Numbered from the stretch's first letter, positions 14,310 to 63,798 are shown. The stretch: DNA of 64,000 nucleotides from a virus (IMGVR_UViG_3300009594_000001), one strand, 5' to 3'. Notes: a model not told the origin generated them from the sequence alone. Program-made: numbers and translations.

Positions 14310-14829
14310 TCGGTAGGAATTCTGCGTGGGCGGCAGGGCCAATATCTTTTACCAACGAGAGTAGGTGGAAGCTGAACTAGGGACGCCTCTGCATCGTGTT
14401 CCTCCACGGACCTGTACTCAGTGGCAGGGTGCCGTGGCTTCGAGAGTTAGAGTAGCAAGAATGTCCCGGTTAAGGCCCTCCTTAGTCTTGTTCCTGCCGT
14501 TTTTACTCTGTTAATCGAGACAAAACGGGAAGCGATAACCTGACGAGGGCACCGTGCTGGTGGGTAACAAAGGGCGTCGGCCCTGGGAAACGATCCCGGA
14601 AAACGCCAGATAGACGACTGACATGGGTAGACCCAGCCGGGGCAGAGCAAGTCCCGGCTGGGTTTTTCATCTCTACTCACTTTACAGCGAGCTTTCCATA
14701 CCATATAATGCCGGGCATGAAGGAGCATCCCGATGGGACTGGATTGGGCGGACAAAGAATACATCGAGGGGTCTACTTGGACGGAAGGCGAGGGAGACTC
14801 CTACGGCAATTGCTGCCAGAGTGAGTTCC

Positions 14830-24582: not shown

Positions 24583-25044
24583 ATGAATGCAACGAAACTG
24601 CTGTCCATAGGAAAGACAGCCGAAAGATTGGGAGTGCATGTTGATACTCTCAGGGAATGGGACAAAGACGGCAAACTGACCCCGGTGAAGACCCCCGGCA
24701 ACCATCGCCGCTACCGCATCGAAGACATCGAAGCGTTCTGCGGCAACATGGTTGAGAAGAAGGATGACGCAAAGGCAGTCAGAGTCGCCCAAGAAAAACC
24801 TCAAAATAAATTCAAGGATGTTTTGCATTTTGCCGATGATTACATTATAATACTTTGTCTGACTGTGGATACTCTACGATTTTGGCGGGACAAAGACGTA
24901 TTTGACCTGATTGGCACAATCGGAGGACACAACATTGATGAAGTTTTAGGTGTAATTAGTGAAAAGTCAAGTAAGGTGGACAGAGGACGAGGTAAATCTT
25001 CTCAAAGAACACGGAGCGACAAAACTCCTGCACGAACTGGTTGA
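24583..25044 (+). CDS. tnpA: IS607-family TnpA N-terminal MerR-like HTH segment (reading frame terminates before the catalytic domain)
   Basis: LLSIGKTAERLGVHVDTLREWDKDGKLTPVKTPGNHRRYRIEDIEAF matches the IS607 TnpA N-terminus from memory; it is followed by the intein block A-like CLTVDTLRF. Confidence 0.5.
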   Translation: MNATKLLSIGKTAERLGVHVDTLREWDKDGKLTPVKTPGNHRRYRIEDIEAFCGNMVEKKDDAKAVRVAQEKPQNKFKDVLHFADDYIIILCLTVDTLRFWRDKDVFDLIGTIGGHNIDEVLGVISEKSSKVDRGRGKSSQRTRSDKTPARTG

Positions 25045-25924
25045 GCTACTACCGAGACATACGGCAATGGGTATCTCGATCAAGAGAAAGCGGCTCGGCA
25101 TAGAACTGCCAGATGAATACCTGTCAAGGCAAGGAGCATACGGCAGGTCATTTGTAAATAATGACAACTTGTGTAAGACGGATCACAGCCTCACGCTAAA
25201 CGATCTTGATGATACGACCAAACAGGTTCTTCTTGGCAGCGTCTTAGGCGACGGCAGTATCAAGAAGAATGGAAGCGGTGGGAAGATGAGGGGCAAGTGG
25301 AGTCAAAGGAACTTCATCTTCTACGACATGCACAGAAGTCCACAATTTGACTACACGGACTGGAAGGCATCCAAACTCCAAACATTCTTAGCCAAGTCAA
25401 GCCGCAACGATGAGAAGAACAGGTCAGAGACTTGGACGGTATCGCATCCGATCTTCACCATGTTGCGTGATAAGTTTTATCCGGCGATGACGAAGTGTAA
25501 CAAGTGCATGATCCCCGCCGACATCGTTGAGCAGATGGATGAGTTGGCGTTGTTGGTGTGGTACTTTGATGACGGCTACATCGGTGTGCGTCCTGATGGA
25601 TTTGACACCAAAGGTCATCACAAACGACCGCAACCAAGAATTGCGGCAAAAGGTTGGAACTACGAAGACCTGTGCAGAGCCGCCGAGATACTGAACAAGA
25701 ACTTGGGGTTGCATCTGTACGTTCTTACATTCAAGCACAGGGACGGTGTTGGTAAAGAAGTCAAGATACCAGCAAAAGACAGGGATTACTTGTTTCAGCT
25801 TTGGCAGCAGTTGGCGAAACAACACGGCGTACCTGAGTGTATGATGTACAAACTGAACCTGCACGAATGGAAAGATGTACTTGTGTATAAGCAGCCACGA
25901 ACAGAAGCAGAAGGGCGACCTTGA
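24959..25924 (+). CDS. LAGLIDADG homing endonuclease (double-motif)
   Basis: Two dodecapeptide motifs, LLGSVLGDGSI and LLVWYFDDGYIG. Lies between the HTH and catalytic parts of tnpA, in a third frame. Confidence 0.7.
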   Translation: MKSQVRWTEDEVNLLKEHGATKLLHELVELLPRHTAMGISIKRKRLGIELPDEYLSRQGAYGRSFVNNDNLCKTDHSLTLNDLDDTTKQVLLGSVLGDGSIKKNGSGGKMRGKWSQRNFIFYDMHRSPQFDYTDWKASKLQTFLAKSSRNDEKNRSETWTVSHPIFTMLRDKFYPAMTKCNKCMIPADIVEQMDELALLVWYFDDGYIGVRPDGFDTKGHHKRPQPRIAAKGWNYEDLCRAAEILNKNLGLHLYVLTFKHRDGVGKEVKIPAKDRDYLFQLWQQLAKQHGVPECMMYKLNLHEWKDVLVYKQPRTEAEGRP

Positions 25925-26999
25925 GCGACAAAATGGGCGGGTTCTCGCCTACTGCGTCAAGAAACAGTACCAAGTAGTAAAATCCTACGAGGAAGTCGGC
26001 TCTGGCATGTGCGACACCCGACCAAAACTTCATCAAATCTTCAAGTTGGTTGAAGAGAAGCAGGTGGATAAGGTCATCGTAGAACACAAGGACCGGCTGA
26101 CCCGGTTCAACTTCAACTTTCTGGCAGCGTTCTTCGCCAGTCATGGTGTTGAGGTTGAATGGACAGAGGAAGTGCTTGGGAACAAGCGGTACGAGGACGA
26201 GTTAGTGGAAGACATGCTCACGCTCATGTCCTCGTTCTCAAACAAAATCTACGGCAAACGATCCGCAGAGAACCGCAAGAAGAAAAAGTTAGAGAAGTTG
26301 GCGGCAAAGGAGCAAGGTGAAGGTACAGAGGGGCTTCAAGACGGAGATCAGACCAAGCGACAAGCAAAAGACGCTGCTGCTCAAGAATGCAGGAGCGGCA
26401 CGCTGGGCGTACAACTACGGTCTGAGCCAGAAGAAGATCGCTCTGGAAGCCAAGACGAAGATACCCAACGCCATCGAACTGCACCGTCGCTTGAACGAGT
26501 TGAAGAAGACGGAAATACCGTGGGCTTACGAGTGCAGCAAGTGCAGTTTTCAAGAAGCACTCAGAAACCTCGACAGGGCTTTCAGCAACTTCTGGACAGC
26601 ACGGAAAACCAAGAGACGCATGGGCTTCCCGAAGTTCAAGAGCAAGAAGAACGGCATCGGCGGCTTCCGGCTCACAGGGACGATCATCGTGTCCAGCGAC
26701 CGCATCCAGTTGCCCCGTCTCGGCACGATCCGGCTCAAGGAGAAGAACTACCTGCCGACCGACGCCAAGATACTCAACGCCACGGTAACGGAGAGGGCTG
26801 GCAGGTGGTTCGTGAGCGTACTGGTGGAGATGGAACAGCCGGAATACACCGGCATCAAGGACAAGAAGGACGTGGTGGGCGTGGACTTGGGCATCAAGAC
26901 GCTGGCGACCGTGAGCGACGGCACGGTGTACGAGAACCCGAAACCACTCAAGACCCGATTACGCAAACTACGGCGGCTACAACGAGCAGTCGCCCGTAA
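25875..26999 (+). CDS. tnpA: IS607-family serine recombinase catalytic domain (TnpA C-terminal part; 3' end uncertain)
   Basis: YLCISSHEQKQKGDLERQ (cf. YARVSSxxQ...DLxRQ) and IVEHKDRLTRFNFNFL...GVEVEW. The frame stays open to 26999, overlapping tnpB out of frame; the true stop is probably near 26330. Confidence 0.55.
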   Translation: MYLCISSHEQKQKGDLERQNGRVLAYCVKKQYQVVKSYEEVGSGMCDTRPKLHQIFKLVEEKQVDKVIVEHKDRLTRFNFNFLAAFFASHGVEVEWTEEVLGNKRYEDELVEDMLTLMSSFSNKIYGKRSAENRKKKKLEKLAAKEQGEGTEGLQDGDQTKRQAKDAAAQECRSGTLGVQLRSEPEEDRSGSQDEDTQRHRTAPSLERVEEDGNTVGLRVQQVQFSRSTQKPRQGFQQLLDSTENQETHGLPEVQEQEERHRRLPAHRDDHRVQRPHPVAPSRHDPAQGEELPADRRQDTQRHGNGEGWQVVRERTGGDGTAGIHRHQGQEGRGGRGLGHQDAGDRERRHGVREPETTQDPITQTTAATTSSRP

Positions 27000-38962: not shown

Positions 38963-40876
38963 ATGGAAAATCTAATTCTTATCCTGATCCTGGCTGGGAG
39001 CGTGGTCTTTGGTTTCTTGGTTCTGGCGTGGCTGATCACGAGATACGTTCCCAACACCAAAGAGGCCATTGTCGAGAAACTATGGTCTGGCAAAGGTTCG
39101 CTGAGCGAGGGCTATATCATCGCTCTCAACGGCGAGGCTGGTTACCAAGCCGACGTTCTGCGAGGCGGTATCCACTTCGGATACTGGCGATGGCAGTATG
39201 GTCTACACAAGACCAAACTCATCGAGATTCGTCAGGGTAAACTCGGTTACGTCTTCTCCAGAGTCGGCGACCCGCTACCGCCTAGCCAAACTCTGGGCAA
39301 GATCGTGGAGTGCGATCATTTCCAAGACGTGAAGAAGTTTCTAGATGGCGGCGGTCAGAAAGGTCGGCAGCGTGCCATTCTTCGTGAAGGCGTTTACGCT
39401 ATCAACCTTGCCGCTTTCTCCGTCATCACCGAGGATCATGTTTACTCGCTGGATCACGACAAGAGCCTGACAGAGTATCACGATCAACTCAAAACCACCA
39501 AGGGCTTTGATCCGGTGGTCATCGGCAGTTCGACCGGCCAAGATAACATTGGCATCGTGACTACACATGATGGTCCGTCGCTGAAGCCGGGCGAGATCAT
39601 TGCTCCCGCTGTTGCGACGGAAGCCAACGACCCGAATTTCCACAACAACTACCAGGACATCGAAGCCTTCTTGCGGGCCGGTGGTCAGCGTGGCTTGCAA
39701 TACGCTCCGTTGCTAGACGGCACGTACTTCCTGAATCACTGGTTTGCCACGATGAAGCTGGTGCCCAAGGAGGTTGTAGACATTGGCTACGTCGGCGTAG
39801 TTGTGAGCTACTACGGCAAGGAAGGTGCCGACACGTCCGGCACTACGTTCCGTCACGGCGAACGTGTACATGTTGGCGAGCGTGGCGTCTGGGAGAAAAC
39901 GCTTGGCCCCGGCAAATATCCTTTCAACAACTTCGCTGGCAAGATCATCATGGTGCCGACGACCAACTTTGTCTTGCACTGGATCACCGGCAAAACCGAA
40001 GGGCACAAGTACGACGAGAGCTTGCGGTCCATCGACCTTATCACGAAAGACGCCTACGAGCCGATCCTGCCACTTTCGGTCGTCGTACACATCGACTACC
40101 AGAAGGCTCCCAGCGTGATCCAGCGGTTCGGCGATGTGAAGAAGCTCATCACTCAAACCATCGACCCGATGCTGAGTGCCTACTTCCGTGACGTGGCTCA
40201 CAAGAAGACCATGCTGGAACTCGTTCACAGCCGTGATGAAATCCAGAAGCAGGCTCGCAAGGAGCTACAAGAGAAGTTCAAGCAATTCGATATCGAATGT
40301 GTTGACGTTCTGATCGGACGCCCAGAGTCCCAGGACAACGACCAGAAGATCGAAACCCTGTTAGAACAGTTGCGAACCCGGCAGCTTTCGCTCGAACAGA
40401 TCGAAACCTACAACAAGCAAGAGCAGGCTGCGGCCAAGCTCCAAACGCTGAACGAAGCCAACGCAAAGGCCGAGTTGCAAAAGGAGCTAACTTCCTCGAA
40501 GGTCAAGATCGAGATCGCTGGCAACGAAGGTTCCGCCGATCTAGAATTGGCCAAGAAGGAGGCCGAGAAGGTCAAGGTTCTCGCAGCCGCCGAAGCCGAG
40601 AAGATCACCAGCATCGGTACTTCCGAGGCCGATGTCTTGCAGAAAAAGGTCAAATCGTTCGGCGATTCCAGACTCTATGCGATGTCAGTGCTGGCTCAGT
40701 ACGTCACGCAGAGCAAGCAGCCCATCGTCCCGACCAACCTGTTCACAACGGGCGGCGGGAAGCAGAATGGCGGCGTGCTTGATCTACTACTGTCACTGAT
40801 AGCGGTGGAACAAGTCAAGAAGCTGTCCAGCGACGGCCAATACGTTGAAGACAATGGGGCCTTAGCAGAGAAGTAG
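38963..40876 (+). CDS. SPFH/band-7 flotillin-like membrane protein
   Basis: N-terminal TM helix, SPFH-like core, and flotillin-type Glu/Ala-rich C-terminus (EKVKVLAAAEAEKITSIGTSEADVLQKKV). Confidence 0.65.
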   Translation: MENLILILILAGSVVFGFLVLAWLITRYVPNTKEAIVEKLWSGKGSLSEGYIIALNGEAGYQADVLRGGIHFGYWRWQYGLHKTKLIEIRQGKLGYVFSRVGDPLPPSQTLGKIVECDHFQDVKKFLDGGGQKGRQRAILREGVYAINLAAFSVITEDHVYSLDHDKSLTEYHDQLKTTKGFDPVVIGSSTGQDNIGIVTTHDGPSLKPGEIIAPAVATEANDPNFHNNYQDIEAFLRAGGQRGLQYAPLLDGTYFLNHWFATMKLVPKEVVDIGYVGVVVSYYGKEGADTSGTTFRHGERVHVGERGVWEKTLGPGKYPFNNFAGKIIMVPTTNFVLHWITGKTEGHKYDESLRSIDLITKDAYEPILPLSVVVHIDYQKAPSVIQRFGDVKKLITQTIDPMLSAYFRDVAHKKTMLELVHSRDEIQKQARKELQEKFKQFDIECVDVLIGRPESQDNDQKIETLLEQLRTRQLSLEQIETYNKQEQAAAKLQTLNEANAKAELQKELTSSKVKIEIAGNEGSADLELAKKEAEKVKVLAAAEAEKITSIGTSEADVLQKKVKSFGDSRLYAMSVLAQYVTQSKQPIVPTNLFTTGGGKQNGGVLDLLLSLIAVEQVKKLSSDGQYVEDNGALAEK

Positions 40877-48673: not shown

Positions 48674-48775
48674 GCGGGATGGTGCAGGATACGGTTCCTT
48701 CGCCAAATGGTATGGCACTAGCTGTCAAAGCTGGAGTTGTGGGTTCAATTCCCACAGGTTCAAATCCCGTATCTG
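48674..48775 (+). ncRNA. ~100-nt tRNA-like region with two T-loop-like motifs
   Basis: 5' gcgggat pairs with 3' atcccgt 100 nt downstream; contains gtggg-ttcaatt-cccac and ggttcaaatcc; no clean cloverleaf. Confidence 0.25.
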
Positions 48776-51666: not shown

Positions 51667-52274
51667 ATAACGCAAAGTACGATAACCACCTGCAAGTCAA
51701 GAAACTGCCGCTCGTTCCAACATATGTCGTTGACATAGGTGCCCACATCGGAACATTCTCTGTATTGGTTAAACGCACCTTCCCAGGCAGCCAAACCATA
51801 TGTTGCGAACGCTGCCCAGAAAACATTCCAATGCTATCGAAGAATATCCGTGGCTTTGGCAAGGTGGTTCAGGCCGCAATCACCTATGAGGTCGATCTAA
51901 CACTTTTGAACTCGGTATTCCCAGATTGTGTGTCTATAGGAGGGAGCATTGTCTGTCATCCTGATTTGCTTGCCACAATTGATAAAGTGCGGTATTGGGC
52001 CGATACGAGGCCGTTAGCTCGCAAGACTTTGGAAAATGTGATCTCCGAGAATAAACTAGAACGGATCGATCTGTTGAAACTAGATTGCGAGGACAGCGAA
52101 TTGAGTATTCTCCGAAACACCACATCACTAGATAAAATTCGATTCATTGTCGGCGAGTGGCACGGAAGGAATCAGTTCATGGATATAGTTTCAACTAGGT
52201 TTTCAACCTGGAACTTCAGAATTTTCAGAGATGGCGAATTGGGATTATTCTGGTTAGAAAATAAGGTAATATGA
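51609..52274 (+). CDS. FkbM-family methyltransferase
   Basis: VVDIGAHIGTFSV (SAM-binding DIGAxxG) and LKLDCEDSELSIL (iKiDvEGaE-like). Confidence 0.65.
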   Translation: MPWSRYTRRGCNHYREYLLDNAKYDNHLQVKKLPLVPTYVVDIGAHIGTFSVLVKRTFPGSQTICCERCPENIPMLSKNIRGFGKVVQAAITYEVDLTLLNSVFPDCVSIGGSIVCHPDLLATIDKVRYWADTRPLARKTLENVISENKLERIDLLKLDCEDSELSILRNTTSLDKIRFIVGEWHGRNQFMDIVSTRFSTWNFRIFRDGELGLFWLENKVI

Positions 52275-52693
52275 TGTCAACAATCTTTCTTACTCGTCCT
52301 CCGTTCATCGTGGATGCAGGGCCGTGCCCTGGCGTTTACTCGGAGGCTTACCAATTTCACCTACAAATGAAAGGAATTGATCCTATGGCTATTTTGAAAG
52401 GCTTTCCGCTGTCCAACACCATTTCTCCGGATACGAGGATAAATATAGAAGAAGAATCAATGTGGCCCATTGACGATACCGATGCCAAGGTTTGCAAAGA
52501 GATAGTTGCCGATGACCCACAAGCTGGTCCAGGGCAGGACGCCGAGTGGGATACTGGCAATTACACGATGGTTCATGACGAAAGGGATTACGGAGATGGC
52601 CGCAACATCAGTTTCAGGAAGAGGTCTGGGGATGTCCTACCCGCCAACGGAGAGGAAATCCAAGCAGAAACCGCAGAATCACATAACGTGTAA
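52271..52693 (+). CDS. hypothetical protein (140 aa)
   Basis: ORF. Confidence 0.4.
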   Translation: MMSTIFLTRPPFIVDAGPCPGVYSEAYQFHLQMKGIDPMAILKGFPLSNTISPDTRINIEEESMWPIDDTDAKVCKEIVADDPQAGPGQDAEWDTGNYTMVHDERDYGDGRNISFRKRSGDVLPANGEEIQAETAESHNV

Positions 52694-52825
52694 TTGTGGT
52701 CCGAATTGCGACCCTCCACCGACTCCCACGCCTTCTCCTAGCAAATGCTATTCTAGAGTGAAAGTTGGCGGGGTCTCTAGAATCAAAGTATCTAATAGTA
52801 GGAGTCTCAAGATTTGTACATAAGG

Positions 52826-52906
52826 GGCCTTGGTCTAACGGTAAGGCGTCGTGTTAAAGTCACAGTGCCGCACGAAGATGTCGGTTCGATTCCGGCAGGT
52901 TCCATA
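52826..52906 (+). ncRNA. tRNA-like element without a resolvable anticodon arm
   Basis: Acceptor ggggcct/aggttcc (two G-U); D-arm gtctaacggtaag; T gtcgg-ttcgatt-ccggc. Confidence 0.3.
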
Positions 52907-52981
52907 TTGATTGAAATGTCTTTTCTGGTTACACTCTAGCATCGTATAGTACATTTTGCCACTTACCCAAAGGAATGCAAG

Positions 52982-55090
52982 ATGTCAGTACCAGAGATGT
53001 TGGAAAGACGGGTGTGGCCCATCGAGAAAGCCCTGCAACGCATCCTTGTTGGGCAGAGGAACGTCATCCGCCGTGTGACTATGGCGTTATTCGCTGTCGG
53101 ACAGCGGGACTTCTATCCAGATGGTACACGATTTTTAGGAACAGGCCACGTTCTATGCGAAGGCGGTGTAGGAACAGGAAAATGTCTTGGTAAAGGCACC
53201 CCCGTCTTGATGTTCGACGGAACTATAATTCCCGTTGAATCCGTTAAGACTGGAGACCTGTTGATGGGACCAGATTCTCTGCCCAGGAAGGTTATTGCTC
53301 TCGGACACGGTTTTGGAGAGCTATATCGGGTGATACCAAAAAAGGGCGATTCGTATGTTGTCAATGACGAGCATATCCTGTCATTTAAGATGACTAGTCG
53401 TGGTCGAAATAGGCAGGGCAATTTTCCACGTTCTGGCGACAATGTTCCTGGCATGATTTATAACATGTCAGTCAAAGAATACTTGGGAAGGTCAGAGCGA
53501 TTCAAGAGTCATGCCAAGGGATATAGAGTTGGCATCGAGTTTGATGAGCGAATTGTGCCACTGGACCCGTATTTTTTTGGCGTGTGGTTGGGAGATGGGA
53601 TCAGTCGCACCGCACAGGTTTGCAATACGGATAACGAAATTATTGCGTACATTCGTAAGATGGCAAACAAGTACAGGCTGCGGTTCAACACTTACACAGC
53701 AAGCGGGAAAGCTCCGATTCACTCGTTGTGGGGGAAAAAATTCCATCCTAATGCGATATTGAGTGCTTTACGTGAAATGAACGTATTGCAAAACAAACAT
53801 GTTCCACAAATATACAAAGCAAATTCACGACGAGTGAGATTGCAAATTTTGGCCGGACTGATGGACACAGATGGCAGTCTGTCGGCTGGTTGCTATGACT
53901 TCGTAAACAAGTCAAAACAACTTGCCGATGATGTGGTTTATTTGGCGAGGTCTCTAGGATTCGCCGCTTATGTCAAACCATGCACCAAGGTTTGCAAAAA
54001 CAACGGTAAAAAGGGTCGATATTACCGAGTATCGATTTCTGGAAATTTATCGGAAGTTCCGGTTCGCATTGCCAAGAAAAAGGCTTCTCTTCGTCGGCAG
54101 AAGAAGAATGTGTTGGTGACTGGAATCAAAGTAGAACCAGAGGGCTATGGAGAATACTTTGGTTTCGAGATTGAGGGACCAGACAGGCTGTTTCTCCTGG
54201 GAGATTTCACGGTCACACACAATACCGTTCTCTGTAAAGCACTTTCTAGGTTGCTGGCTGGCAACTCCAAACGAGTATCGGGAATGCCCGACGCACTTGC
54301 CAGCGATATTACTGGTTGCGAGATCATCTTGCTGACCGGCGATACCAAGACGGTCCAGGGGCCGCTATTCTGCAACGTTATGCTGGCTGACGAGATCAAC
54401 CGTTTCCCGCCCAAAGCCCAAAATGCGTTCATCGAAGCACTGGCTGAAGGCTGTGTCACCATCGCAAATGAAACTATTCGTTTGAAGCAGCCTTTCTTCT
54501 GCCTCGCTACACAGAACCCGACTGAGCAAAAAGGCACGAGTCGTCTACAAGAGGCTCTGTCAGACCGGTTTATGTTCAAACTCGTCATGCGTGAGACTAC
54601 AGAGCAGGAGAAGATTGATATCGCAAAGCGGACACACCACTTCGATGTCACGAACCTGAATCCTGTAATTACGACAGACGAAGTATACGAAGCTAGAGAG
54701 TATTTCTTCAACAATACTCACGTCAGCGATGAGGTACGTCGCTACGCTGCTCGCTTGCTTCGTGCAATCAACCATCCAGCGGAATACAAACTTCTTGAGA
54801 AGGAACGGGCCTTGCTTGCGGGCGATAACATCTTCAAGCAAAAGCCAGCGGTCAACGACCGTGCCATGCTGCATATGGAAGGTGCGGCGATGATGGAGGC
54901 GGTTATGAGTGGGAGGGACTACGTGATCCCCGCCGACGTTGCTGCTGTTGCGGCAGATGCCCTCCGTGCCCGTCTTCTCCTGTCTGAGTCTAGTTTGCAC
55001 CTTCTGGCGGAACTACACCCAGGCAAAACCGAAACCGAGTTGGTGGACTATTTCATAGACGAAACTCTGTCTAGGGTGCGACACACTTGA
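52982..55090 (+). CDS. MoxR-like AAA+ ATPase interrupted by an intein (extein about 355 aa)
   Basis: Walker A GGVGTGK|...|T is split by the intein; the post-intein extein carries Walker B LADEINR and sensor motifs typical of MoxR. Confidence 0.8.
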   Translation: MSVPEMLERRVWPIEKALQRILVGQRNVIRRVTMALFAVGQRDFYPDGTRFLGTGHVLCEGGVGTGKCLGKGTPVLMFDGTIIPVESVKTGDLLMGPDSLPRKVIALGHGFGELYRVIPKKGDSYVVNDEHILSFKMTSRGRNRQGNFPRSGDNVPGMIYNMSVKEYLGRSERFKSHAKGYRVGIEFDERIVPLDPYFFGVWLGDGISRTAQVCNTDNEIIAYIRKMANKYRLRFNTYTASGKAPIHSLWGKKFHPNAILSALREMNVLQNKHVPQIYKANSRRVRLQILAGLMDTDGSLSAGCYDFVNKSKQLADDVVYLARSLGFAAYVKPCTKVCKNNGKKGRYYRVSISGNLSEVPVRIAKKKASLRRQKKNVLVTGIKVEPEGYGEYFGFEIEGPDRLFLLGDFTVTHNTVLCKALSRLLAGNSKRVSGMPDALASDITGCEIILLTGDTKTVQGPLFCNVMLADEINRFPPKAQNAFIEALAEGCVTIANETIRLKQPFFCLATQNPTEQKGTSRLQEALSDRFMFKLVMRETTEQEKIDIAKRTHHFDVTNLNPVITTDEVYEAREYFFNNTHVSDEVRRYAARLLRAINHPAEYKLLEKERALLAGDNIFKQKPAVNDRAMLHMEGAAMMEAVMSGRDYVIPADVAAVAADALRARLLLSESSLHLLAELHPGKTETELVDYFIDETLSRVRHT
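53183..54223 (+). mobile_element. intein with LAGLIDADG homing endonuclease domain (347 aa)
   Basis: Begins with Cys in block A (CLGKGTPVLMFDG); LAGLIDADG motifs FFGVWLGDGIS and ILAGLMDTDGSLS; ends VTHN, followed by the Thr that completes GKT. Confidence 0.8.
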
Positions 55091-55932
55091 AAAAGAACTT
55101 TCGATCTATCGAAATCACTGTTAAGAAACTGCTCAATACTTTTCCAACTGGCGGGCATGTAAGTTCACTCAAGAACTCCATTATTGACGTTGATGTGGTC
55201 CGAGAGTATCAGCCCGGTGACAAGCGGTTGGATAGTCGAGCCAGCCTCCGTACCAACAGCATTATGTCGAGGGTATTCACCCCCGACAAGTCAATGAACG
55301 TGATGTTGGTTTTGGATGTTAGTTGCTCTCAGGCATCTAAGTTCGAGTCGGCTATTCTTGTGTGCCTGTATCTGTGCTATCTGGCAAATCAGTCCAACGA
55401 CCCGGTTGGTCTGACAACTTTTGGCGATAGAGTGTCACTTTCTATCCAGCCGGATGAGGACATTCGGAATGTTACCTCTGTACTAGAACAAATTTACTAT
55501 AGAGGCAATCTATCACCTGGGAGTAACCTGGACGACGCTCTTCGGAGGATTGGCAATCAAGAACCCTCGAATACTCTCACTGTGCTGGTAAGTGATTTCT
55601 GTTTCCCGTTTAGCGATCGTATAGTTGGTCTACTACGTTGTATATCATGCGGCATAAATAACGTGATGATAGCTCCAATTCTTGCAAACTCTCAGGAATG
55701 GTCTTTCGATGTATTGCCATTTCGGGTAGACTTTAAGGATTCGGAAAGCAACGATGCAACTAACTGGAATTTTGGATCGGAGAAGGCACACAAAGGTCAT
55801 CTGGCGGCTTTTGAGAAGTGGCAAACCGATCTAAAGGCCGTCCTGCATCAAGGAAGGGTCGAGCCTATCTTGATGCAGGTAGATAAGCCTGATTTTATGA
55901 TGCCCTTGGTCAAATTTTTCCTGAGAGCGTAA
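55087..55932 (+). CDS. DUF58-domain protein (MoxR partner)
   Basis: VREYQPGDKRLDSRASLRT matches the DUF58 signature (YxxGDxxRxIDWKA). Confidence 0.65.
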   Translation: MKKNFRSIEITVKKLLNTFPTGGHVSSLKNSIIDVDVVREYQPGDKRLDSRASLRTNSIMSRVFTPDKSMNVMLVLDVSCSQASKFESAILVCLYLCYLANQSNDPVGLTTFGDRVSLSIQPDEDIRNVTSVLEQIYYRGNLSPGSNLDDALRRIGNQEPSNTLTVLVSDFCFPFSDRIVGLLRCISCGINNVMIAPILANSQEWSFDVLPFRVDFKDSESNDATNWNFGSEKAHKGHLAAFEKWQTDLKAVLHQGRVEPILMQVDKPDFMMPLVKFFLRA

Positions 55933-55933
55933 C

Positions 55934-57415
55934 ATGGACCTGATTTCTGCTTTCACTCTGTTCTTCGGTATCTTCGCTTGCATAGATCGGCAGCCGGTCT
56001 ATCAGATCGACCATTTTTACTACTACAACGCTGAACACAAGCAGATCGGTTTGCCGTTGCAAGGTGGGGTGTTGGCTCCCAACGGTCCCGGTTTACAAGA
56101 CTTCATTGACGCTGGCAAACACGGCGAGGCGACAGTTAAGAAGCTGGAGAAAAGCCAGTTTGAGGGTGTTGTTTTCGTCTGCGACGACAACCGGAAAATG
56201 CTTGAGTTGCTTAGAAAGTTGAGCGACAAGAAGATAGAAGCGTACCCTATAGTCAAGTTCTCTAACATGCTCTGTGTGCCCAGCGACACGGTTTTGGTGA
56301 AAACGAAGAAGCATGTTACCGAGGCCACGTTGAAGCAACGCCTCAAGCACAACGGCAAACTAGTTGTCGATAAAATCGACAAAGCGGCACCGTACACATA
56401 CCAAATCAAGATCAGCAAGATGTCGTTGCCTCCCAACATTCTTGTCACGGCTAATATGCTCGCAGAGGATACGGCGTGGTTTGAACATGCACGAGCGATG
56501 TTCCGCCCCATATATCAGCCTGTTGTGGCGTGGGTCGTCGTAGAACGACCAGCGAGTTCGACCGTTGGCGAGGAACGCCTTCTGAAGCTTGTAATCGAAG
56601 TACACAAGCCTTCGATCAAGATTCTGAAGGACACCATTCCGAGCCTTGGGCATAATAAATGGATTCCTCAGCCTCAGACGCTCGATGTTTGGTGTGAATT
56701 CGGGAAGCCATCGCCACACAAGGTAGAAGCCACGCAAGACGGCTACATGATCACGATCACGCAGCCGTTTCGCTTTTACTCAATTGTCCCGATCATTATT
56801 CCGCCTGCTGGCTTTGTCTACGAAGACGATGATGGGGAGAAATATATGGCTAACATCCAGGGCTGCAAATATCGAAACTCTAGTCTGCTTGCTGGGACAA
56901 ATATCGATGACATACAGCCAAGACCCCCCATTGGATCACTGCCTTTGTTAGACGCTCCTGAGCCTCTGGTTCCCGAAACCAGCCTGTATGGTTATCGACC
57001 GCTGTTGTTATACGGAATGGCGATGGTCGGGGTTGGGTCGCTGGTGTTGGTGCTTTTGGTGTTGGCAAAGGCCAATCGTTTTCGCATCAACACGCTGTTG
57101 CGTTGGGCCGGAAGTCGAGAGCGTGCCCGTTACTGGAATGAGCTAGAATCGACTGCGTTCCACCTGAATGCTGGCGACAACTGGCGTCTGGCCTACCAAC
57201 AGGTTACGGATGCACTCTCGAATGTGCTGAGCGAGTTTTATGATGTCAAACGGCCATTGTCGGCTTTGGAACACAAAGACACGCTTCTTCAGTCCATCGT
57301 AGGCGAGCTAGAACTGTTCTATAAGTCCGACTATGAGCCGAACGAGGCTGCTGTGGCGGCTCTGGTTGCCAACCTGAACACCTTTGTCAAGGAACGGGTC
57401 AAGTTCAATGTTTGA
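55934..57415 (+). CDS. membrane-anchored hypothetical protein (493 aa) of the Bat-like operon
   Basis: Single TM helix near the C-terminus (LLLYGMAMVGVGSLVLVLLVLA). Confidence 0.45.
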   Translation: MDLISAFTLFFGIFACIDRQPVYQIDHFYYYNAEHKQIGLPLQGGVLAPNGPGLQDFIDAGKHGEATVKKLEKSQFEGVVFVCDDNRKMLELLRKLSDKKIEAYPIVKFSNMLCVPSDTVLVKTKKHVTEATLKQRLKHNGKLVVDKIDKAAPYTYQIKISKMSLPPNILVTANMLAEDTAWFEHARAMFRPIYQPVVAWVVVERPASSTVGEERLLKLVIEVHKPSIKILKDTIPSLGHNKWIPQPQTLDVWCEFGKPSPHKVEATQDGYMITITQPFRFYSIVPIIIPPAGFVYEDDDGEKYMANIQGCKYRNSSLLAGTNIDDIQPRPPIGSLPLLDAPEPLVPETSLYGYRPLLLYGMAMVGVGSLVLVLLVLAKANRFRINTLLRWAGSRERARYWNELESTAFHLNAGDNWRLAYQQVTDALSNVLSEFYDVKRPLSALEHKDTLLQSIVGELELFYKSDYEPNEAAVAALVANLNTFVKERVKFNV

Positions 57416-58481
57416 ACACCCATACTTTTTGGCACTCGGTCTGCTAGCGTTAGCATTTTTATTCTACCGCTGCAACCGGTACTTCTTGACCCATGCCTAT
57501 GTCAAGGCCCTGAAAACTACGCAGGACGCAATTGGCGGGGGAAGTGGGCGTTTTAGATTTCAGAGTTCGATGCTGGCATTGGGGTGGGTGGTCTTGATTA
57601 TTGCCGCTTCGGGTATGTCCTGGGGTTTCACACAACCCGTTAGGAAGCAACAAGTCCACAAATACGTACTGGTAAACGATGGCTCTGGTTCTATGGTGGA
57701 TGGGAACAAACTACAAGGGAGGGGGAAGCAACTAGATACTGTTCACAAAGGAAACCAAGCGTTTCTCAACATGCTCGCCCAGAGAGATGACGGGAGCAAG
57801 GATGTGGTGGGAGCGGTGGTGTTTTCCAATGATGCCTACATTGTCTCTTACTTAGTTGATGATCCCGCCTTTGTTGAAAAAAAGTTGAGCTTCATCGACT
57901 ATAGGCTGCCTCCCCTTGCAGGAGGCACGCTGTCGGATAGGTCTTTGTGGTGTGCCGTGGAAATGCTGATGCGTGATGGTAAGAAAGCGTCGGATGAAGA
58001 CATGCTCGCAATGCAGTTGACTATGTACGGTCCAGAGGAGAAATACAAGCGAACGGAGAAGATGGAAGAGCTTGTTAAGAAGTACCAGCCAATTGTAGAA
58101 GGCGGCAATATCGTTATCTTTACCGATGGGATATTCCAACCCTGGGGCAACGCCCAGATGATGTCCACTTTCAAATTGCTCGATCTGTGTAAGGATTTGC
58201 GTATTAAGGTCTACCTAATTTCGGTCGAGACGATAGACCCGCTGTTGTTCGCAAGCATGAAAGAGACCGGAGGGTTTGCTATACTCTTGCGTGGCTTTGA
58301 TGCCAAGGTGTTTGAGCAGACCTACACAGATATAGTGAGAAGCAACGCTCAAGAGGAAATCGTTGTAGACCAGCCCATCAGGAAACCGTTGTCTCCGATC
58401 TTGGCCCCAATAGCTTTTGCTCTTATTGCTGCGGGTTTGCTGTTGAGGCTGACATTTAATCGAAACTACACAGAGGTCTAA
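57384..58481 (+). CDS. vWA-domain membrane protein (BatA-like)
   Basis: N-terminal and C-terminal TM helices; MIDAS motif YVLVNDGSGSM. Confidence 0.65.
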   Translation: MSRNGSSSMFEHPYFLALGLLALAFLFYRCNRYFLTHAYVKALKTTQDAIGGGSGRFRFQSSMLALGWVVLIIAASGMSWGFTQPVRKQQVHKYVLVNDGSGSMVDGNKLQGRGKQLDTVHKGNQAFLNMLAQRDDGSKDVVGAVVFSNDAYIVSYLVDDPAFVEKKLSFIDYRLPPLAGGTLSDRSLWCAVEMLMRDGKKASDEDMLAMQLTMYGPEEKYKRTEKMEELVKKYQPIVEGGNIVIFTDGIFQPWGNAQMMSTFKLLDLCKDLRIKVYLISVETIDPLLFASMKETGGFAILLRGFDAKVFEQTYTDIVRSNAQEEIVVDQPIRKPLSPILAPIAFALIAAGLLLRLTFNRNYTEV

Positions 58482-58482
58482 C

Positions 58483-59292
58483 ATGAAAAAGCTACTACTC
58501 CTCGTCCTGGTTACACTCGCTGGCGGAAGCTATATGATGTTCTATAGCAAGGCCCAGGATTACGAACGCCAGCAGAAGGAAACAGAGTGCCAAGCACAAA
58601 TCAAGAAAGTCGATGCCGTAAATGCGTTCATTAAGAGCATTAACGAGGCGAAGACAGTCGCTCAATTAGAAAGCTTGGAAGCAGAGTTGGCTCATTGGCT
58701 TGATCCAGACGGAGATGCCCACAAAAAAGTTAGGTCCACGATTTTGCTCAAAAAGGCCAGGGTATCTTTTGATGAGGCCGAGGAGCTTCTACAACAAGCA
58801 ATCAGCTTGCAGCAGGCATTGAATTTACCACCGTTGCCTCCACCGTTGCCTCCACCACAGTCGGAGCTAGCGGACCCGCATAATCACTATAATTCCGCAC
58901 CGCCGTCCAGACCGGAACTGTCGATTCATCCAGCGGCTCAGGAGGCTTTAATCAAAGCCGACAAGCTGTACGTGGACAGCAAAAAATATCTGGATAAGCT
59001 CAGCGACATTCCAGGTGATACGAGCTATAACTTCTCGCTTAATTACCTCAAGGGAGAGGTATATTATCGTCACACGATGTTTCGTTCGTCGTCCGAAACT
59101 GTTCAGGACTTGTTCACACAGACTGCCACGTACTACAAGAAAGCTCTGTCGTACAAGCCCGGAGACGTTGATACCACTGTCAACATCGAACTGCTTCTTA
59201 AACAGCAGCAGGGCATGATGGGCGAGGCAGGACAATCTCAGCCTCAACGGATGTTGAACCAAATGGGCATGGGCAAGTCCAAAGGCAACTGA
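58483..59292 (+). CDS. secreted helical/TPR-like protein (BatC-like)
   Basis: Signal peptide MKKLLLLVLVTLAGG; proline-rich PPLPPPLPPP linker; helical repeats. Confidence 0.4.
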   Translation: MKKLLLLVLVTLAGGSYMMFYSKAQDYERQQKETECQAQIKKVDAVNAFIKSINEAKTVAQLESLEAELAHWLDPDGDAHKKVRSTILLKKARVSFDEAEELLQQAISLQQALNLPPLPPPLPPPQSELADPHNHYNSAPPSRPELSIHPAAQEALIKADKLYVDSKKYLDKLSDIPGDTSYNFSLNYLKGEVYYRHTMFRSSSETVQDLFTQTATYYKKALSYKPGDVDTTVNIELLLKQQQGMMGEAGQSQPQRMLNQMGMGKSKGN

Positions 59293-59293
59293 T

Positions 59294-60334
59294 ATGTTCG
59301 AGAACCCCTTATTTCTCTGGGCACTCCTGTTTGTGCCCCTGGTAGTAATACTGCTGGTGTATTCGTGGCGTTGCTTCAAGAAATTCGAGCAATCGCCACG
59401 AATTGCCTCTTTTCTATACGCAAGTAGGCGTCCTGGCTGGGCAGCCCGTAGGGTTATTGCTGTCGTTTGGTTGGTTTCTCTGTCTCTGTTGATTCTTGGT
59501 CTTGCTCAGCCGTATGTAGATGTCCCGACTTCAGAGAAAAAGCACAAGAACGTCAGGATATTCTTCGTCGTGGATGTCTCTAGATCGATGGTCTATGCCG
59601 AGGATATCAAGCCCAATAGAATGGTTGCGGCACGGTCTGAGTTGGTAGAACTCTACAAGCAATTGGATGGGCATTATGAGTGCAGCATCATTCCTTTTGC
59701 TGGTTCGCCGAACGTCTATTACTGCCCCCTGACGTACAGTAAGCGAGTTATTCTGCCGCTCCTTGAAGACCTGGGGCCGGACACGGCACCAGAATATGGC
59801 ACTGATTTGGTTAAGGCTGTGTCGGCTCTTCAAAACATTCTCAAGCAAGAAAAGCTAGATCAAGACGGTATCAACCTCATCATTCTCGTCAGCGACGGCG
59901 GCAAGGAGGAGGCAGAGGCGACGAACAGGGTAAGACTACATGCGTTGGTCCAAAGCATGGCCTCGAAGAACTGTAAGTTCTTCACGGTTGGTGTTGGTGG
60001 TCGTGATCCCTGTGAGCTAATCAAACGGTACGGCGATGGCTCGTTCGATGATTTTTTGAAGGAAGACGGCAAGATACAGGTCTCTCATTTGGATGAGGAG
60101 ATTTTGCAGGCAGTGGCAGATCAAGGCAACGGCAAATATTGTCATTTTCATCAGAAAGATCAGATGCGGGGCTTTGTAAACGAAGCGATACAGCGAAACC
60201 GCATAGAAGAGGGAGCCATTGTCGTCACAAAAAGGGTCTACCTGGAGTATTATTTGTACGCCCTCTGTGCTATACTTCTGTGGTTCGGTTTCATAGCCAA
60301 CAAAACATATGCATCAGAGACCAGAAGTAAGTGA
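59294..60334 (+). CDS. vWA-domain membrane protein (BatB-like)
   Basis: N-terminal TM helices; MIDAS motif IFFVVDVSRSM; C-terminal TM. Confidence 0.65.
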   Translation: MFENPLFLWALLFVPLVVILLVYSWRCFKKFEQSPRIASFLYASRRPGWAARRVIAVVWLVSLSLLILGLAQPYVDVPTSEKKHKNVRIFFVVDVSRSMVYAEDIKPNRMVAARSELVELYKQLDGHYECSIIPFAGSPNVYYCPLTYSKRVILPLLEDLGPDTAPEYGTDLVKAVSALQNILKQEKLDQDGINLIILVSDGGKEEAEATNRVRLHALVQSMASKNCKFFTVGVGGRDPCELIKRYGDGSFDDFLKEDGKIQVSHLDEEILQAVADQGNGKYCHFHQKDQMRGFVNEAIQRNRIEEGAIVVTKRVYLEYYLYALCAILLWFGFIANKTYASETRSK

Positions 60335-60496
60335 TGAGGAAATTCAATTCCTCGTCTACAGGTATGTGATGGGCGAACTTACCGACGTGCAGTTTAATTA
60401 CTATGTCCAGGTCTGGCAATTGGATCGGGAATACGTTAATCTTCTGCTCAGCGATGCTAGACGAGCCAAGGAGATTTTCGACCATGTTCCTTTTGG

Positions 60497-60931
60497 GTGC
60501 CTTTGGTTTTTGATGGCTGTGGTCATTGTGTTGATAATCATAATGTTGAATTTTCTACTATAATGAGTGACCATTACGACGAAGCTGAGCTTTTTGTCTG
60601 CGATTGCAGCGATGTAGCTCACCAACTTGTTTTCCAACTCTGGGACTTTAGCAAGAACGGCGAGGAGCTTTGGAGACCGGCAAAGGAAAACGTAAATTTG
60701 ACAGTTTGCGTTTACCTGAACCAGTATCACGGCTTCTGGGCACGTCTCTGGATGGCGGTCAAGTACGTGTTTGACTACCGAAGTAAGTACGGCGAGTTTG
60801 ACGTGGTGAACATCCGGGCCGAGGATGTGCCAAGAATGAAGGCAATTCTTGACAAGTTCGCTTCTAGGGTCCAGTATTATCAGGGAGAGTTAGACGCCCT
60901 GGATTCCAAGCGGAACTTGGTCCAAGAGTAA
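60497..60931 (+). CDS. hypothetical protein (144 aa)
   Basis: ORF. Confidence 0.4.
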   Translation: MPLVFDGCGHCVDNHNVEFSTIMSDHYDEAELFVCDCSDVAHQLVFQLWDFSKNGEELWRPAKENVNLTVCVYLNQYHGFWARLWMAVKYVFDYRSKYGEFDVVNIRAEDVPRMKAILDKFASRVQYYQGELDALDSKRNLVQE

Positions 60932-61329
60932 CGCCGTTCCTCAGCGAGACAACGAACAGCGAACCTCAACACGCCTACCAATACGGCATCCCAACGGTCG
61001 ATTTCTACTTGGGTCATAATATCTCTGGCGGGCAAACCGTGGCCCTCGTAGTACCGCCTGCACCTGCTGATCCAGGGCTGTTCAGCGATCTCGCAGAATA
61101 GAAAATCCATTACGCTCCGGTAGGAGTCCATCTTCTTCCGGGTAGAGACGTACTTCAATGCCAGAAGCGTGTCGGTGTCTTCCAGGGCCGTTTCTGCCAA
61201 GGGAAAGATCGTGGTCAAATACTCGCTCTCGCAGCGGATTGACAGTTCAGGACGGATTGAGCAGGCCAGTTGCATGAGTACCTCCTTGCTGTGGGCTAAA
61301 AGCAAGTATCGTGCCAAGCGAGGAAACAC
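60880..61329 (-). CDS. hypothetical protein (149 aa)
   Basis: ORF on the minus strand. Confidence 0.35.
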   Translation of the reverse strand: MFPRLARYLLLAHSKEVLMQLACSIRPELSIRCESEYLTTIFPLAETALEDTDTLLALKYVSTRKKMDSYRSVMDFLFCEIAEQPWISRCRRYYEGHGLPARDIMTQVEIDRWDAVLVGVLRFAVRCLAEERRYSWTKFRLESRASNSP

Positions 61330-61527
61330 CCAGGGGCCGGTGCCGGAAGAGGCTTGTCGTAACTGGAGTTACGGAAAACGGAACTAGGTTGGCCTTCCAC
61401 AAGATTGTTTGTGCGGTCAACAAAATCGATTGTGGAGTCGAACGATACCGATCATGGCGTCGGGCGAATGTCGTCAAAAGGCGGCGACCGTCGCCGTAAG
61501 GTGACGCCAAAAGGCGTCGGAGGGGTA

Positions 61528-61830
61528 ATGGAGTACCGTATGTTTGCACGGAGGGTGCTGGATCGGCCTCTCCGGGTTGCCATCCTCGATCACCGAGGGC
61601 TGCGTTTTGTCGCCAAAGTCCTCAACACTAGCGAAGGCGGGTTGGGGCTTCTTTGCGATCAGGCTTTTGAGATTGGCTCGGTGCTGCAAGTCATTACTGG
61701 GTCGCTTTGGTGTGACACAAAAGTTCGGCATTGCACTAGAACAGGAAATGAATACACTGTTGGTGTGGAGTACACAGACGCTCACAAGGGCAAAGCGATC
61801 ACCAACAGTCTGAATAGAGGTCATTTATGA
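61528..61830 (+). CDS. PilZ-domain protein
   Basis: RRVLDRPLRV (RxxxR) and NTSEGGLGL (D/NxSxxG) c-di-GMP-binding motifs; an alternative TTG start at 61405 exists. Confidence 0.5.
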   Translation: MEYRMFARRVLDRPLRVAILDHRGLRFVAKVLNTSEGGLGLLCDQAFEIGSVLQVITGSLWCDTKVRHCTRTGNEYTVGVEYTDAHKGKAITNSLNRGHL

Positions 61831-62291
61831 GTGTACTAGAAACGATTCAGTTCCGAATCACCGCAGCGATGAAGTCGGGCAACGACACAGAGAAGAATCT
61901 TTTTCGAGTCGTTCTCGGCGAGGCACAGATGGCCGCTGTCCGCAAGGGAAAGGACAAGCCGGACGACGAAACCATGATCGCTACCATTCGCAAGGTTATC
62001 AACGGTCTGAATGAGAACATTGTTCTGGTCAAAGGGTCGGCCACAGGCGGCTCAACCGTGCAGCAGGAAACCGAGCTAGCTCTGCTGGCACCGTTCCTGC
62101 CCGCTACCTGGGACCAGCCGCAGATCGAGGCATTCTTCCTCAATGGCGATAACCTGGTTTTTGAACAAATTCGTGACGCCAAGAGCGAGGGAGCGGCGAT
62201 GGGCCTTGCTATGAAGACGCTCAAAGGCGAATCGGCACCGGTCAACGCCGACGACGTGAAGGCTGTTGTCACCAAGATTCGTACATCCTGA
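61827..62291 (+). CDS. GatB/YqeY-domain protein
   Basis: 154 aa with the YqeY pattern (AMKSGNDTEKNLFRVVLGE...ETELALLAPFLP...AAMGLAMKTLKG). Confidence 0.7.
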   Translation: MSVLETIQFRITAAMKSGNDTEKNLFRVVLGEAQMAAVRKGKDKPDDETMIATIRKVINGLNENIVLVKGSATGGSTVQQETELALLAPFLPATWDQPQIEAFFLNGDNLVFEQIRDAKSEGAAMGLAMKTLKGESAPVNADDVKAVVTKIRTS

Positions 62292-62348: not shown

Positions 62349-62612
62349 ATGAAGCCAGTTCTATCTCATACACGCCATATTGCGAAGGCCATTTCTTACC
62401 GTATTCTCGGCACCATCGCAACTATATTGATCGGCTGGGTAGTAACCGACAGTATAGAAGTCGGGACTTCTCTTGGAATCCTCGACATTACTGTTAAGAC
62501 TTTCCTCTATTACCTTCATGAACGGGTCTGGTATAGAATCCCGTTTGGAGTAAATAGAGATGATAATATGCATCCAACCAGTGGAACAGTGGACGGGAGC
62601 GACCGATCTTGA
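62349..62612 (+). CDS. DUF2061-like small membrane protein
   Basis: AISYRILGTIATILIGWVVTDS...TFLYYLHERVWYRIPFG. Confidence 0.45.
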   Translation: MKPVLSHTRHIAKAISYRILGTIATILIGWVVTDSIEVGTSLGILDITVKTFLYYLHERVWYRIPFGVNRDDNMHPTSGTVDGSDRS

Positions 62613-62775: not shown

Positions 62776-63237
62776 ATGTCGATCTTCGAGAGGGAATCCA
62801 AGAAGGATTTCGATTTCGAGAAGGACATCCTGGGGCTTCAAATGGTGAGGCCCTATAAGCACGAGGGTCGCTGGGTTTTCGATGACCAAGAAGGACTTCG
62901 CCGGGATATCGCACCCGCTGGTGCTACTGTAGCGACTCTCTCTCCAATTGTGGTCGGGGCCGACCGCTTAATTATGGAGGGAACCAGGAGGAAGGGAATC
63001 GAAAATCCAGAAAGTGGATTTCGTCTCTACTTCTCAGATAAGGCGTTTCCTGATGCCGATGTAGAGTTCCGCTGGGAGCGGGAATGCTATGACGGGCATA
63101 TCTACAACGTTTTACCATGCGGAGATAAAATTGCCATTCCCTCCGACCAACAGGCTTGGATTTGTCCTTACCTGATGTTATACTACAAACAACCGCCGAA
63201 GATTCTATTTCTGAAGATCGAGGCTGATGGGAGATAA
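62776..63237 (+). CDS. hypothetical protein (153 aa)
   Basis: ORF with RBS aggagag. Confidence 0.45.
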   Translation: MSIFERESKKDFDFEKDILGLQMVRPYKHEGRWVFDDQEGLRRDIAPAGATVATLSPIVVGADRLIMEGTRRKGIENPESGFRLYFSDKAFPDADVEFRWERECYDGHIYNVLPCGDKIAIPSDQQAWICPYLMLYYKQPPKILFLKIEADGR

Positions 63238-63708: not shown

Positions 63709-63798
63709 GCTCCGGTCGGTTAATGGTAAGCCCCACGACTTATAATCGTGTCAGTCCCAGATAAGGACGAAATGTGGGTTCGATTCCCACCCGGAGCA
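63709..63798 (+). tRNA. type-II-like tRNA with anticodon TAT (long variable arm)
   Basis: Acceptor gctccgg/ccggagc; AC cacga-ctTATaa-tcgtg; ~21-nt variable arm with stem gtcc/ggac; T gtggg-ttcgatt-cccac. Confidence 0.5.

Follow-up and report, generated by a model that had tools for sequence, protein, structure and literature searches.

Why would a virus carry a complete Bat-type operon? The question is raised by positions 52982-60334 of a 64,000-nucleotide stretch of the viral sequence IMGVR_UViG_3300009594_000001 (this whole stretch is called the window), where six open reading frames (ORFs), here g1 to g6, are tightly packed on the plus strand and fill the interval (Table 1). The original prediction, made from the nucleotide sequence, read them as a Bat/MoxR-vWA operon. 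Operons of the MoxR-DUF58-VWA type are widespread in bacteria, where they have been tied to stress tolerance, envelope integrity and virulence. The Bat operon was described in Bacteroides in 1999, and cellular examples of the type include BatI of Bacteroides fragilis, bb0170-bb0176 of Borrelia, the bat genes of Leptospira and RL3499-RL3502 of Rhizobium. Huge phages are already known for many cell-like genes.

As judged by sequence comparison, a clade of huge phages, with T4-type capsids and genomes of about 0.46-0.63 Mb, has long carried and conserved the six-gene module, which is not host DNA. The gene content and order that had been claimed stand, and a cellular operon, that of Rikenellaceae L014, has the same six parts. 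What is new in the cassette is that it is phage-borne and highly divergent, that its g3 ectodomain is novel and that its motor is split by an intein. Searches of the literature turned up no paper on a Bat-type six-gene set in phages.

Phage carriage of the cassette

The complete cassette occurs in the same order in IMG/VR contigs of up to 341 kb, in LR756511.1, a curated 595-kb phage genome, and in a contig of 633,754 bp (L009). Eight divergent phage loci hold all six genes, again in the same order, at 24-83% identity. In the 634-kb contig the cassette lies 3.5 kb downstream of Portal_T4, Peptidase_S77 and Gp23, and the gp23 of LR756511.1, located 131 kb from the cassette of that genome, is 78% identical to it. 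Carriage on a phage and not on a chromosome, as originally proposed, is thus upheld by the retention of the cassette in LR756511.1 and the IMG/VR contigs and by its position beside T4-type head genes. Structural genes within the window do not bear out the original description of an element rich in phage hallmarks. Because no virion structural gene was found among the window ORFs scanned, the phage nature of the window rests mainly on its relatives.

Those relatives are diverse. All-against-all comparison of flanking ORFs separated three sublineages (the window; L009-L011; L001-L008), which have only the six cassette genes in common within about 10 kb. The cassette is flanked by a tRNA array in the window and by head genes in L009; L002 and its group have a family A polymerase (PolA) and a NUDIX gene upstream and a DnaB helicase and a dCMP deaminase downstream. 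The flanking genes of L009 are absent from the window and from the other loci. Outside the cassette, no link from the window to the cassette-bearing relatives could be made by the flanks, by the ligase or by large proteins: a ligase pattern scan of IMG/VR, seeking non-cassette relatives of the window, found nothing, and four large window proteins match Rhizobium jumbo phages at ~24% identity and not LR756511.1. The source contig of the window, a metagenomic one of 463,644 bp (ENA ERZ27245623 k141_14709), encodes proteins with 100% identity to g3 and g5, and their neighbours there are mostly ORFans without a Pfam match.

Some details of individual loci deserve mention. In L009, which among the cassette-bearing relatives is the closest, a gene for FBPase (glpX) lies just downstream of the cassette, and the T4-type portal gene (positions 1-410) is itself intein-bearing, with both Intein_splicing and Portal_T4 matches. 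Extra DNA of 0.2-1.3 kb separates MoxR from DUF58 in L003 (11071-11646), L005 (11071-12347) and L002 (11071-11274). It contains small ORFs of unassigned function, such as one of 242 residues in L005, and breaks the 4-nt overlap seen in the window.

How far the phage genes stand from cellular ones is clearest for MoxR, whose homologs include a phage-only cluster of ~63 proteins at 54-83% identity, followed by a sharp fall to about 35-38% for the best cellular proteins. The nearest MoxR homologs, for which a viral-versus-cellular comparison had been proposed, are viral. For g6, a search of 185,579 species genomes gave cellular matches of 25-32% identity at best, spread across Bacteroidota, Planctomycetota, Verrucomicrobiota, Bdellovibrionota and other groups. 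Since cellular relatives are only 25-38% identical, contamination and recent capture are ruled out; recent capture from a host is rejected also by composition, as the guanine-plus-cytosine (GC) content of the cassette (0.46-0.51) lies inside the range of the window (0.455-0.551) without a break. These comparisons indicate an old phage module, long resident under purifying selection.

The MoxR ATPase and its intein

The g1 product matches AAA_3 (5.2e-34; 117.4 bits against a Pfam cutoff of 27) and AAA_lid_2 (29.7 bits against 22.7). Its Walker B motif (LADEINR), sensor-1 TQNP and DRF arginine show no variation among phage and cellular homologs, and it is followed by the expected MoxR operon partners, namely a DUF58 gene that overlaps its stop by 4 nt and, further downstream, two VWA genes. 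The MoxR assignment of the original prediction is therefore correct, but an intein had been missed, and the ORF of 702 residues, about double the usual length of a MoxR ATPase, is a precursor. The intein comprises precursor residues 68-414 and splits the Walker A motif between Lys and Thr (GGVGTGK/C...THN/T, with slashes at the splice junctions). The motif GGVGTGK/T is whole only once the intein has been removed, and the spliced product would be colinear and 355 residues long. Because the insertion interrupts the catalytic P-loop, the ATPase is predicted to be inactive before splicing.

The intein has Hom_end_hint (1.8e-12; 48.2 bits against a cutoff of 32.1), LAGLIDADG_3 and Hom_end domains, all above their Pfam cutoffs, and the splice residues C68, H413-N414 and, at +1, T415. 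Its best match in the PDB is yeast PI-SceI (3e-14). The motifs WLGDGIS and LMDTDGS align with WIGDGLS and LIDSDGY of PI-SceI, including both catalytic Asp residues. With PI-SceI-type inteins it shares the Hint domain, two LAGLIDADG motifs with conserved Asp, Cys1, the terminal His-Asn, insertion into the nucleotide-binding site of an ATPase and sporadic occurrence with decayed and mini forms. It differs in its host protein, a phage MoxR ATPase, in its site between Lys and Thr of GKT, in its +1 nucleophile, Thr, and in Block B, which reads NDEH where TxxH is usual. The endonuclease is also matched by the HEase model of PADLOC. No description of an intein in MoxR turned up in a literature search.

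Occupancy of the site varies widely among relatives. The closest database relatives of MoxR (76-83% identity, 352-357 residues) have no intein, and the site is likewise empty in L001-L005, L008, L009 and about 60 database homologs. At the same site, L006 has a full-length intein that is 61% identical to that of the window, P0044 one with a partly deleted endonuclease and degenerate motifs, and P0014 a mini-intein. This series of full, decayed, mini and absent forms is, from the alignments, the classic homing cycle of invasion, decay and loss, and the intein is best described as a selfish homing element, with predicted splicing and homing activity and no role in module function. It illustrates the natural homing cycle cleanly, with MoxR as the new host protein, and it marks MoxR as a gene that is hard for these phages to lose.

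Apart from the intein, MoxR of the phage clade has an insertion of 15 residues, QRDFYPDGTRFLGTG, just before the Walker A strand (window 53105-53149, residues 42-56), which is missing from the cellular MoxR P0068. A second insertion of ~9 residues near precursor residue 620 is also absent from cellular MoxR.

The DUF58 and VWA proteins and their predicted topology

Pfam bore out the domain assignments for MoxR, DUF58 and the VWA domain of g6; the VWA match of g4 stayed below threshold, and g3 and g5 had no Pfam match. The DUF58 protein predicted for g2 was recovered as such (DUF58, 5.2e-21; VWA_2, 1.1e-6). Its REYQPGD signature and DxSxS residues (D77, S79, S81) are invariant in 8 phage orthologs.

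For g4 the only match was VWA_2 at 2.4e-4, below the gathering score, and no Pfam match to the BatA N-terminal domain was obtained. The protein has the DGSGS motif of a metal-ion-dependent adhesion site (MIDAS), whose residues (D99, S101, S103, T182, D248) are invariant across the eight phage orthologs, so that the MIDAS attributed to the BatA-like protein is well founded. The g6 protein matches VWA_2 (9.1e-13) and VWA (1.4e-7) in Pfam and, in NCBIfam, Leptospira BatB (BatB_Lepto, 8.1e-25) and BatA (7e-12); its match to the BatA N-terminal domain (6.4e-4, 20.5 bits) falls below the gathering score of 25.9. The MIDAS residues of g6 (D94, S96, S98, T170, D201) are equally invariant in the eight orthologs. 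In cross-hits of hidden Markov models (HMMs), g4 corresponds to the first cellular VWA gene and g6 to the second, and the agreement of these hits with NCBIfam supports the naming of g4 as BatA-like and g6 as BatB-like. Both proteins follow the BatA/BatB pattern: a transmembrane (TM) hairpin at the N-terminus, then a VWA domain whose MIDAS is complete, then a TM helix at the C-terminus.

The three hydrophobic segments of each protein lie at residues 9-27, 57-75 and 336-354 in g4 and 6-24, 54-72 and 317-335 in g6, with a strongly basic loop between TM1 and TM2 (Lys/Arg-rich in g6). In g3 a single TM helix precedes a basic, cytoplasmic tail, and g5 has an N-terminal hydrophobic helix. MoxR and DUF58 have no TM segments, and four of the six proteins are thus membrane-anchored. 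By the positive-inside rule, the VWA domains of g4 and g6, the TPR protein and the ectodomain of g3 are predicted to be periplasmic. A three-TM topology with a periplasmic VWA domain was shown experimentally for the BatA-type protein BB0173 of Borrelia (PMC5700661).

The g3 and g5 proteins

No Pfam match was obtained at any threshold in the 52 members of the g3 family that were scanned. The family itself is very small: the g3 profile picked up 4 proteins in a word-indexed search, and it took an exhaustive search of 1.84 billion proteins to reach 68 representatives at 50% identity. When the family HMM was run against 80 cellular Bat-type loci (2,071 ORFs), it repeatedly matched the gene just upstream of a BatA-type gene in several phyla, as well as some larger downstream ORFs. 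The cellular proteins so matched are classed by Pfam as BatD (PF13584) plus DUF4381. An alignment of the g3 family compared with an alignment of these BatD+DUF4381 proteins gave an hhalign probability of 98.2% (E 4.7e-14) over 261 columns, pairing residues 193-485 with nearly the whole cellular protein, a significance that is somewhat inflated because the cellular set was picked via weak HMM hits. Against a single Rikenellaceae protein the probability was 81%, and against a single Halarcobacter protein of 128 residues in the equivalent operon slot it was 5.8%, which is not significant; only the comparison of alignment with alignment was convincing.

Nothing in the cellular proteins corresponds to the ~190 residues at the start of g3. 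The predicted layout consists of an N-terminal hydrophobic helix, a phage-specific alpha/beta region (residues ~27-190), a beta-sandwich, a TM helix (358-376) and a cytoplasmic helical bundle. By profile comparison, g3 is probably of the BatD/DUF4381 type, extended at its N-terminus by ~190 phage-specific residues, which refines the plain label of membrane protein that it had been given.

The secreted TPR-like protein foreseen at g5 found support at the level of profiles and not in Pfam, where no match was obtained, TPR included. The AlphaFold2 (AF2) model is all-helical, with a predicted local distance difference test (pLDDT) score of 81.6. Foldseek returned no match to it with E below 1e-3, and TPR-like folds top its list. 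Cellular TPR proteins of Bat operons, gathered independently by phmmer from the Rikenellaceae TPR protein, matched g5 with an hhalign probability of about 90% (E 1.3e-6 to 1.8e-6) over 70 columns, spanning the last TPR pair and the motif Y(K/R)xAL..P.D...N(L/I)E. An HMM hit, L038_9987_10865, is a TPR protein encoded directly after BatA. With a match of about 90%, g5 is probably a BatC-like, TPR-type protein of the operon.

Relation to cellular and viral systems

The cellular loci used for comparison at the sequence level were those of Rikenellaceae L014, a metagenome-assembled genome, and of Planctomycetota and Verrucomicrobiota. The L014 operon, in the order MoxR, DUF58, unannotated protein, TPR, BatA-type and BatA-type, corresponds one-to-one with the phage six. 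Shared with bacterial Bat-type operons in general are a MoxR AAA_3 ATPase, DUF58, a probable BatD/DUF4381 protein, two three-TM MIDAS VWA proteins, a probable TPR protein, tight packing on one strand and a BatA-type topology like that mapped for BB0173. The phage version differs in being encoded by huge phages and at most 25-38% identical, and in placing the TPR gene between the two VWA genes instead of before or after them. Its g3 has the specific N-terminal region of ~190 residues and lies below all Pfam thresholds, its MoxR has the 15-residue insertion before the P-loop and, in this genome, the intein, and it has no BatE. No BatE (SH3 plus TPR) ORF was seen in or beside the cassette; BatE is not universal, since the six-gene operon of Rikenellaceae lacks it too.

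Among viruses, MoxR-vWA pairs are known from Acidianus two-tailed virus and from group 2.2 jumbo phages, in which the vWA domain is fused to a metallopeptidase, and they have been interpreted as chaperones of virion assembly (PMC7824862). The cassette shares with them a virus-encoded MoxR-family ATPase with VWA-domain partners. The known pairs consist of two genes, with soluble or peptidase-fused VWA domains tied to virion assembly, whereas the cassette has six genes, four of them encoding membrane proteins. Its VWA partners are among those membrane proteins, no peptidase domain was found, and linkage to structural genes is not stable. The other phage MoxR records of the reference collection come either with a DUF58-like partner and no more, as in Stenotrophomonas phage TS-12, or with none.

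Possible role in the infected cell

What might a phage do with such a gene set? On balance we favour, with moderate confidence, a complex that the phage would build in the inner membrane and periplasm of its host to maintain or remodel the envelope during infection, and not to assemble virions. We favour a role in the envelope because the full list of membrane parts has been kept, the VWA domains are predicted to be periplasmic and linkage to structural genes is not conserved. The MoxR precursor would first excise its PI-SceI-type intein, joining ...GTGK to T... and yielding a working Walker A loop. A MoxR hexamer, with the VWA-like DUF58 protein as adaptor, would then act from the cytoplasmic side on the membrane components (in g3 the DUF4381-like cytoplasmic domain, in g4 and g6 the basic loops). 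On the other side, the periplasm-facing MIDAS VWA domains, the TPR protein and the g3 ectodomain may bind and organise envelope partners. Such a role, extended to the phage copies by analogy, would parallel the phenotypes in envelope integrity and stress that go with the bacterial operons.

Several points weigh against this proposal. We know of no established biochemical mechanism for the cellular Bat/MoxR operons, and likeness to them therefore transfers little mechanism to the phage. The predicted topology is drawn from hydrophobicity and charge rules and from analogy, and the AF2 model of g3 is of moderate confidence only (pLDDT 64.6). Among the window ORFs scanned there is no capsid, portal or terminase gene. 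In L009-L011 the cassette adjoins head-morphogenesis genes, and the known viral MoxR-vWA pairs are themselves thought to be assembly chaperones (PMC7824862).

These last two points lead to the idea that MoxR and its VWA partners fold or assemble the capsid or tail, perhaps at the inner membrane, where T4-type proheads start. Beside the precedent and proposal from Acidianus two-tailed virus and group 2.2 jumbo phages (PMC7824862), the position of the cassette 3.5 kb downstream of portal, prohead protease and gp23 in L009, L010 and L011 and the cytoplasmic nature of MoxR and DUF58, both free of TM segments, would fit. That adjacency is not conserved, however, since a replication block stands there in L001-L008 and the tRNA array in the window, and in LR756511.1 the head gene is 131 kb away. 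Moreover, four of the six proteins are membrane-anchored with BatA/B-type VWA domains predicted to be periplasmic, the peptidase fusion of group 2.2 jumbo phages is missing, and the entire cellular parts list has been kept, well beyond a MoxR-vWA pair. We consider a role in assembly unlikely, and rank slightly lower again a device for superinfection exclusion or inter-phage conflict, in which the periplasmic VWA domains and the g3 ectodomain would bind parts of incoming phages or host receptors. The predicted binding domains do face the periplasm, the N-terminal ~190 residues of g3 are peculiar to the phages, and envelope-associated, vWA-containing Ter systems reported in jumbo phages have been read as superinfection or conflict devices (PMC7824862). 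Against this, PADLOC matched no defence-system model save HEase and a weak DolB hit (1.1e-4) to the MoxR AAA domain, MoxR gave no match to Pfam bpMoxR, and the strong conservation of all components, MoxR above all, between deeply diverged phages is atypical of fast-turnover conflict genes.

Two further explanations are much less probable. The intein could serve as a conditional switch, with redox-sensitive splicing at Cys1 in the P-loop gating MoxR, and with it the whole module, according to the state of the infected cell. It does interrupt the catalytic P-loop with a cysteine nucleophile, and splicing of a conditional, redox-sensitive kind is on record for certain other inteins. Most relatives are intein-free, however, the full-decayed-mini series is typical of a selfish element, and P-loops are a generally favoured intein site, all of which makes a switch improbable. 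Least probable of all is an origin outside phages, be it a bacterial chromosomal Bat operon, a mis-binned or chimeric contig or a recently captured host operon travelling as passenger DNA. Bat operons are typically chromosomal and the scanned window ORFs include no capsid, portal or terminase gene, yet this explanation is largely refuted: three phage sublineages, whose flanks are unrelated, all have the cassette, one copy adjoins T4-type head genes and another belongs to LR756511.1. The 25-38% identity of cellular proteins, the 43 tRNA genes, uniform GC content and ORFan neighbours of the window and the conservation of all motifs likewise argue against it.

A bolder form of the envelope proposal, which we put forward as a tentative possibility, is that this clade of huge phages builds an ATP-driven, periplasm-facing Bat-type machine of its own, with a phage-invented BatD-like ectodomain, and re-engineers the envelope of the host with it. 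If so, the envelope might, for example, be stabilised through a long infection or competing phages shut out, and the minimal six-gene phage set could be a handle for revealing what Bat/MoxR-DUF58-VWA operons do. The presence of a complete, conserved cassette in phages of 0.46-0.63 Mb suggests that the system is useful as a portable, self-sufficient unit of six genes, which provides a minimal parts list. To the cell-like functions of huge phages, the cassette would add an ATP-driven complex located in the envelope.

Layout and surroundings of the cassette

Table 1. Genes of the cassette and segments of the MoxR precursor, in window coordinates.
Feature	Position	Strand	Evidence or remark
g1, MoxR (MRP-type) AAA+ ATPase precursor, 702 residues	52982..55090	+	AAA_3, AAA_lid_2
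MoxR N-extein, residues 1-67, ending in Walker A ...GVGTGK	52982..53182	+	Carries the 15-residue phage-clade insertion before the P-loop
Intein, 347 residues, PI-SceI/VMA1 type, predicted LAGLIDADG homing endonuclease	53183..54223	+	Cys1, C-terminal HN, +1 Thr
MoxR C-extein, residues 415-702, first residue the Walker A Thr	54224..55090	+	
g2, DUF58 protein, predicted cytoplasmic VWA-like adaptor, 281 residues, no TM segment	55087..55932	+	DUF58 5.2e-21
g3, probable BatD/DUF4381-type membrane protein, 493 residues	55934..57415	+	Profile-profile match, no Pfam
g4, BatA-like VWA protein, 357 residues from ATG 57408, 3 TM helices	57408..58481	+	MIDAS, HMM cross-hit
g5, probable BatC-like TPR-type helical protein, 269 residues, N-terminal membrane/signal helix, Pro-rich linker	58483..59292	+	hhalign, AF2
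g6, BatB-like VWA protein, 346 residues, BatA-type N-terminal TM hairpin, C-terminal TM helix	59294..60334	+	VWA_2, NCBIfam

The junctions between the six ORFs measure -4, +1, -32, +1 and +1 nt, and the third becomes -8 nt when g4 starts at ATG 57408. This start is likelier than TTG 57384, where the longest ORF begins, because it was called on the source contig and because the only N-terminal Met conserved among orthologs is M9. The cassette genes end at ordinary stops, such as TGA for MoxR. Promoter and terminator scans of 52000-61500 gave counts comparable to those of shuffled controls and are thus uninformative on transcription units. An ORF of 84 residues (60309-60563), C-terminally anchored and overlapping the end of g6, was rejected as part of the module since it is conserved in no relative. 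Beyond it, up to 63237, follow a weak PilZ-like ORF, YqeY (61827-62291), DUF2061 (62349-62612) and DUF6717 (62776-63237).

The window contains many ORFans and a long tRNA array, with 43 tRNA genes, all on the plus strand, over about 41 kb (22438-63798). One with anticodon TCA, called as selenocysteine (48693-48763), may be an opal suppressor. A tRNA-Phe(AAA) of 81 nt (52824-52904) stands immediately upstream of MoxR; tRNA-Ile(TAT), 90 nt (63709-63798), and tRNA-Gly(ACC) are also unusual. Within the array lies an ORF for a free-standing LAGLIDADG_2 homing endonuclease (24959-25924), overlapped by one of serine recombinase/resolvase type (25875-26999), both being further selfish elements.

Elsewhere in the window are two ORFs resembling phage RNA polymerase sigma factors (867-1418 and 14623-15441; phrog_351, 9e-24 and 2e-13), a DUF4139 protein of 706 residues (15299-17419) and an SPFH/Band-7 protein of 637 residues (38963-40876), the latter a possible second membrane-organising protein of this phage. 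A fused GT2 and GT4/GT1 glycosyltransferase of 684 residues (19642-21696) is encoded on the minus strand, which has few genes. An NAD-dependent DNA ligase (7297-9513) with an N-terminal extension of ~160 residues adjoins a TROVE/Ro60-like protein (10357-12282), and a ligase-TROVE-tRNA neighbourhood is also annotated in Rhizobium jumbo phages, at ~24% identity.

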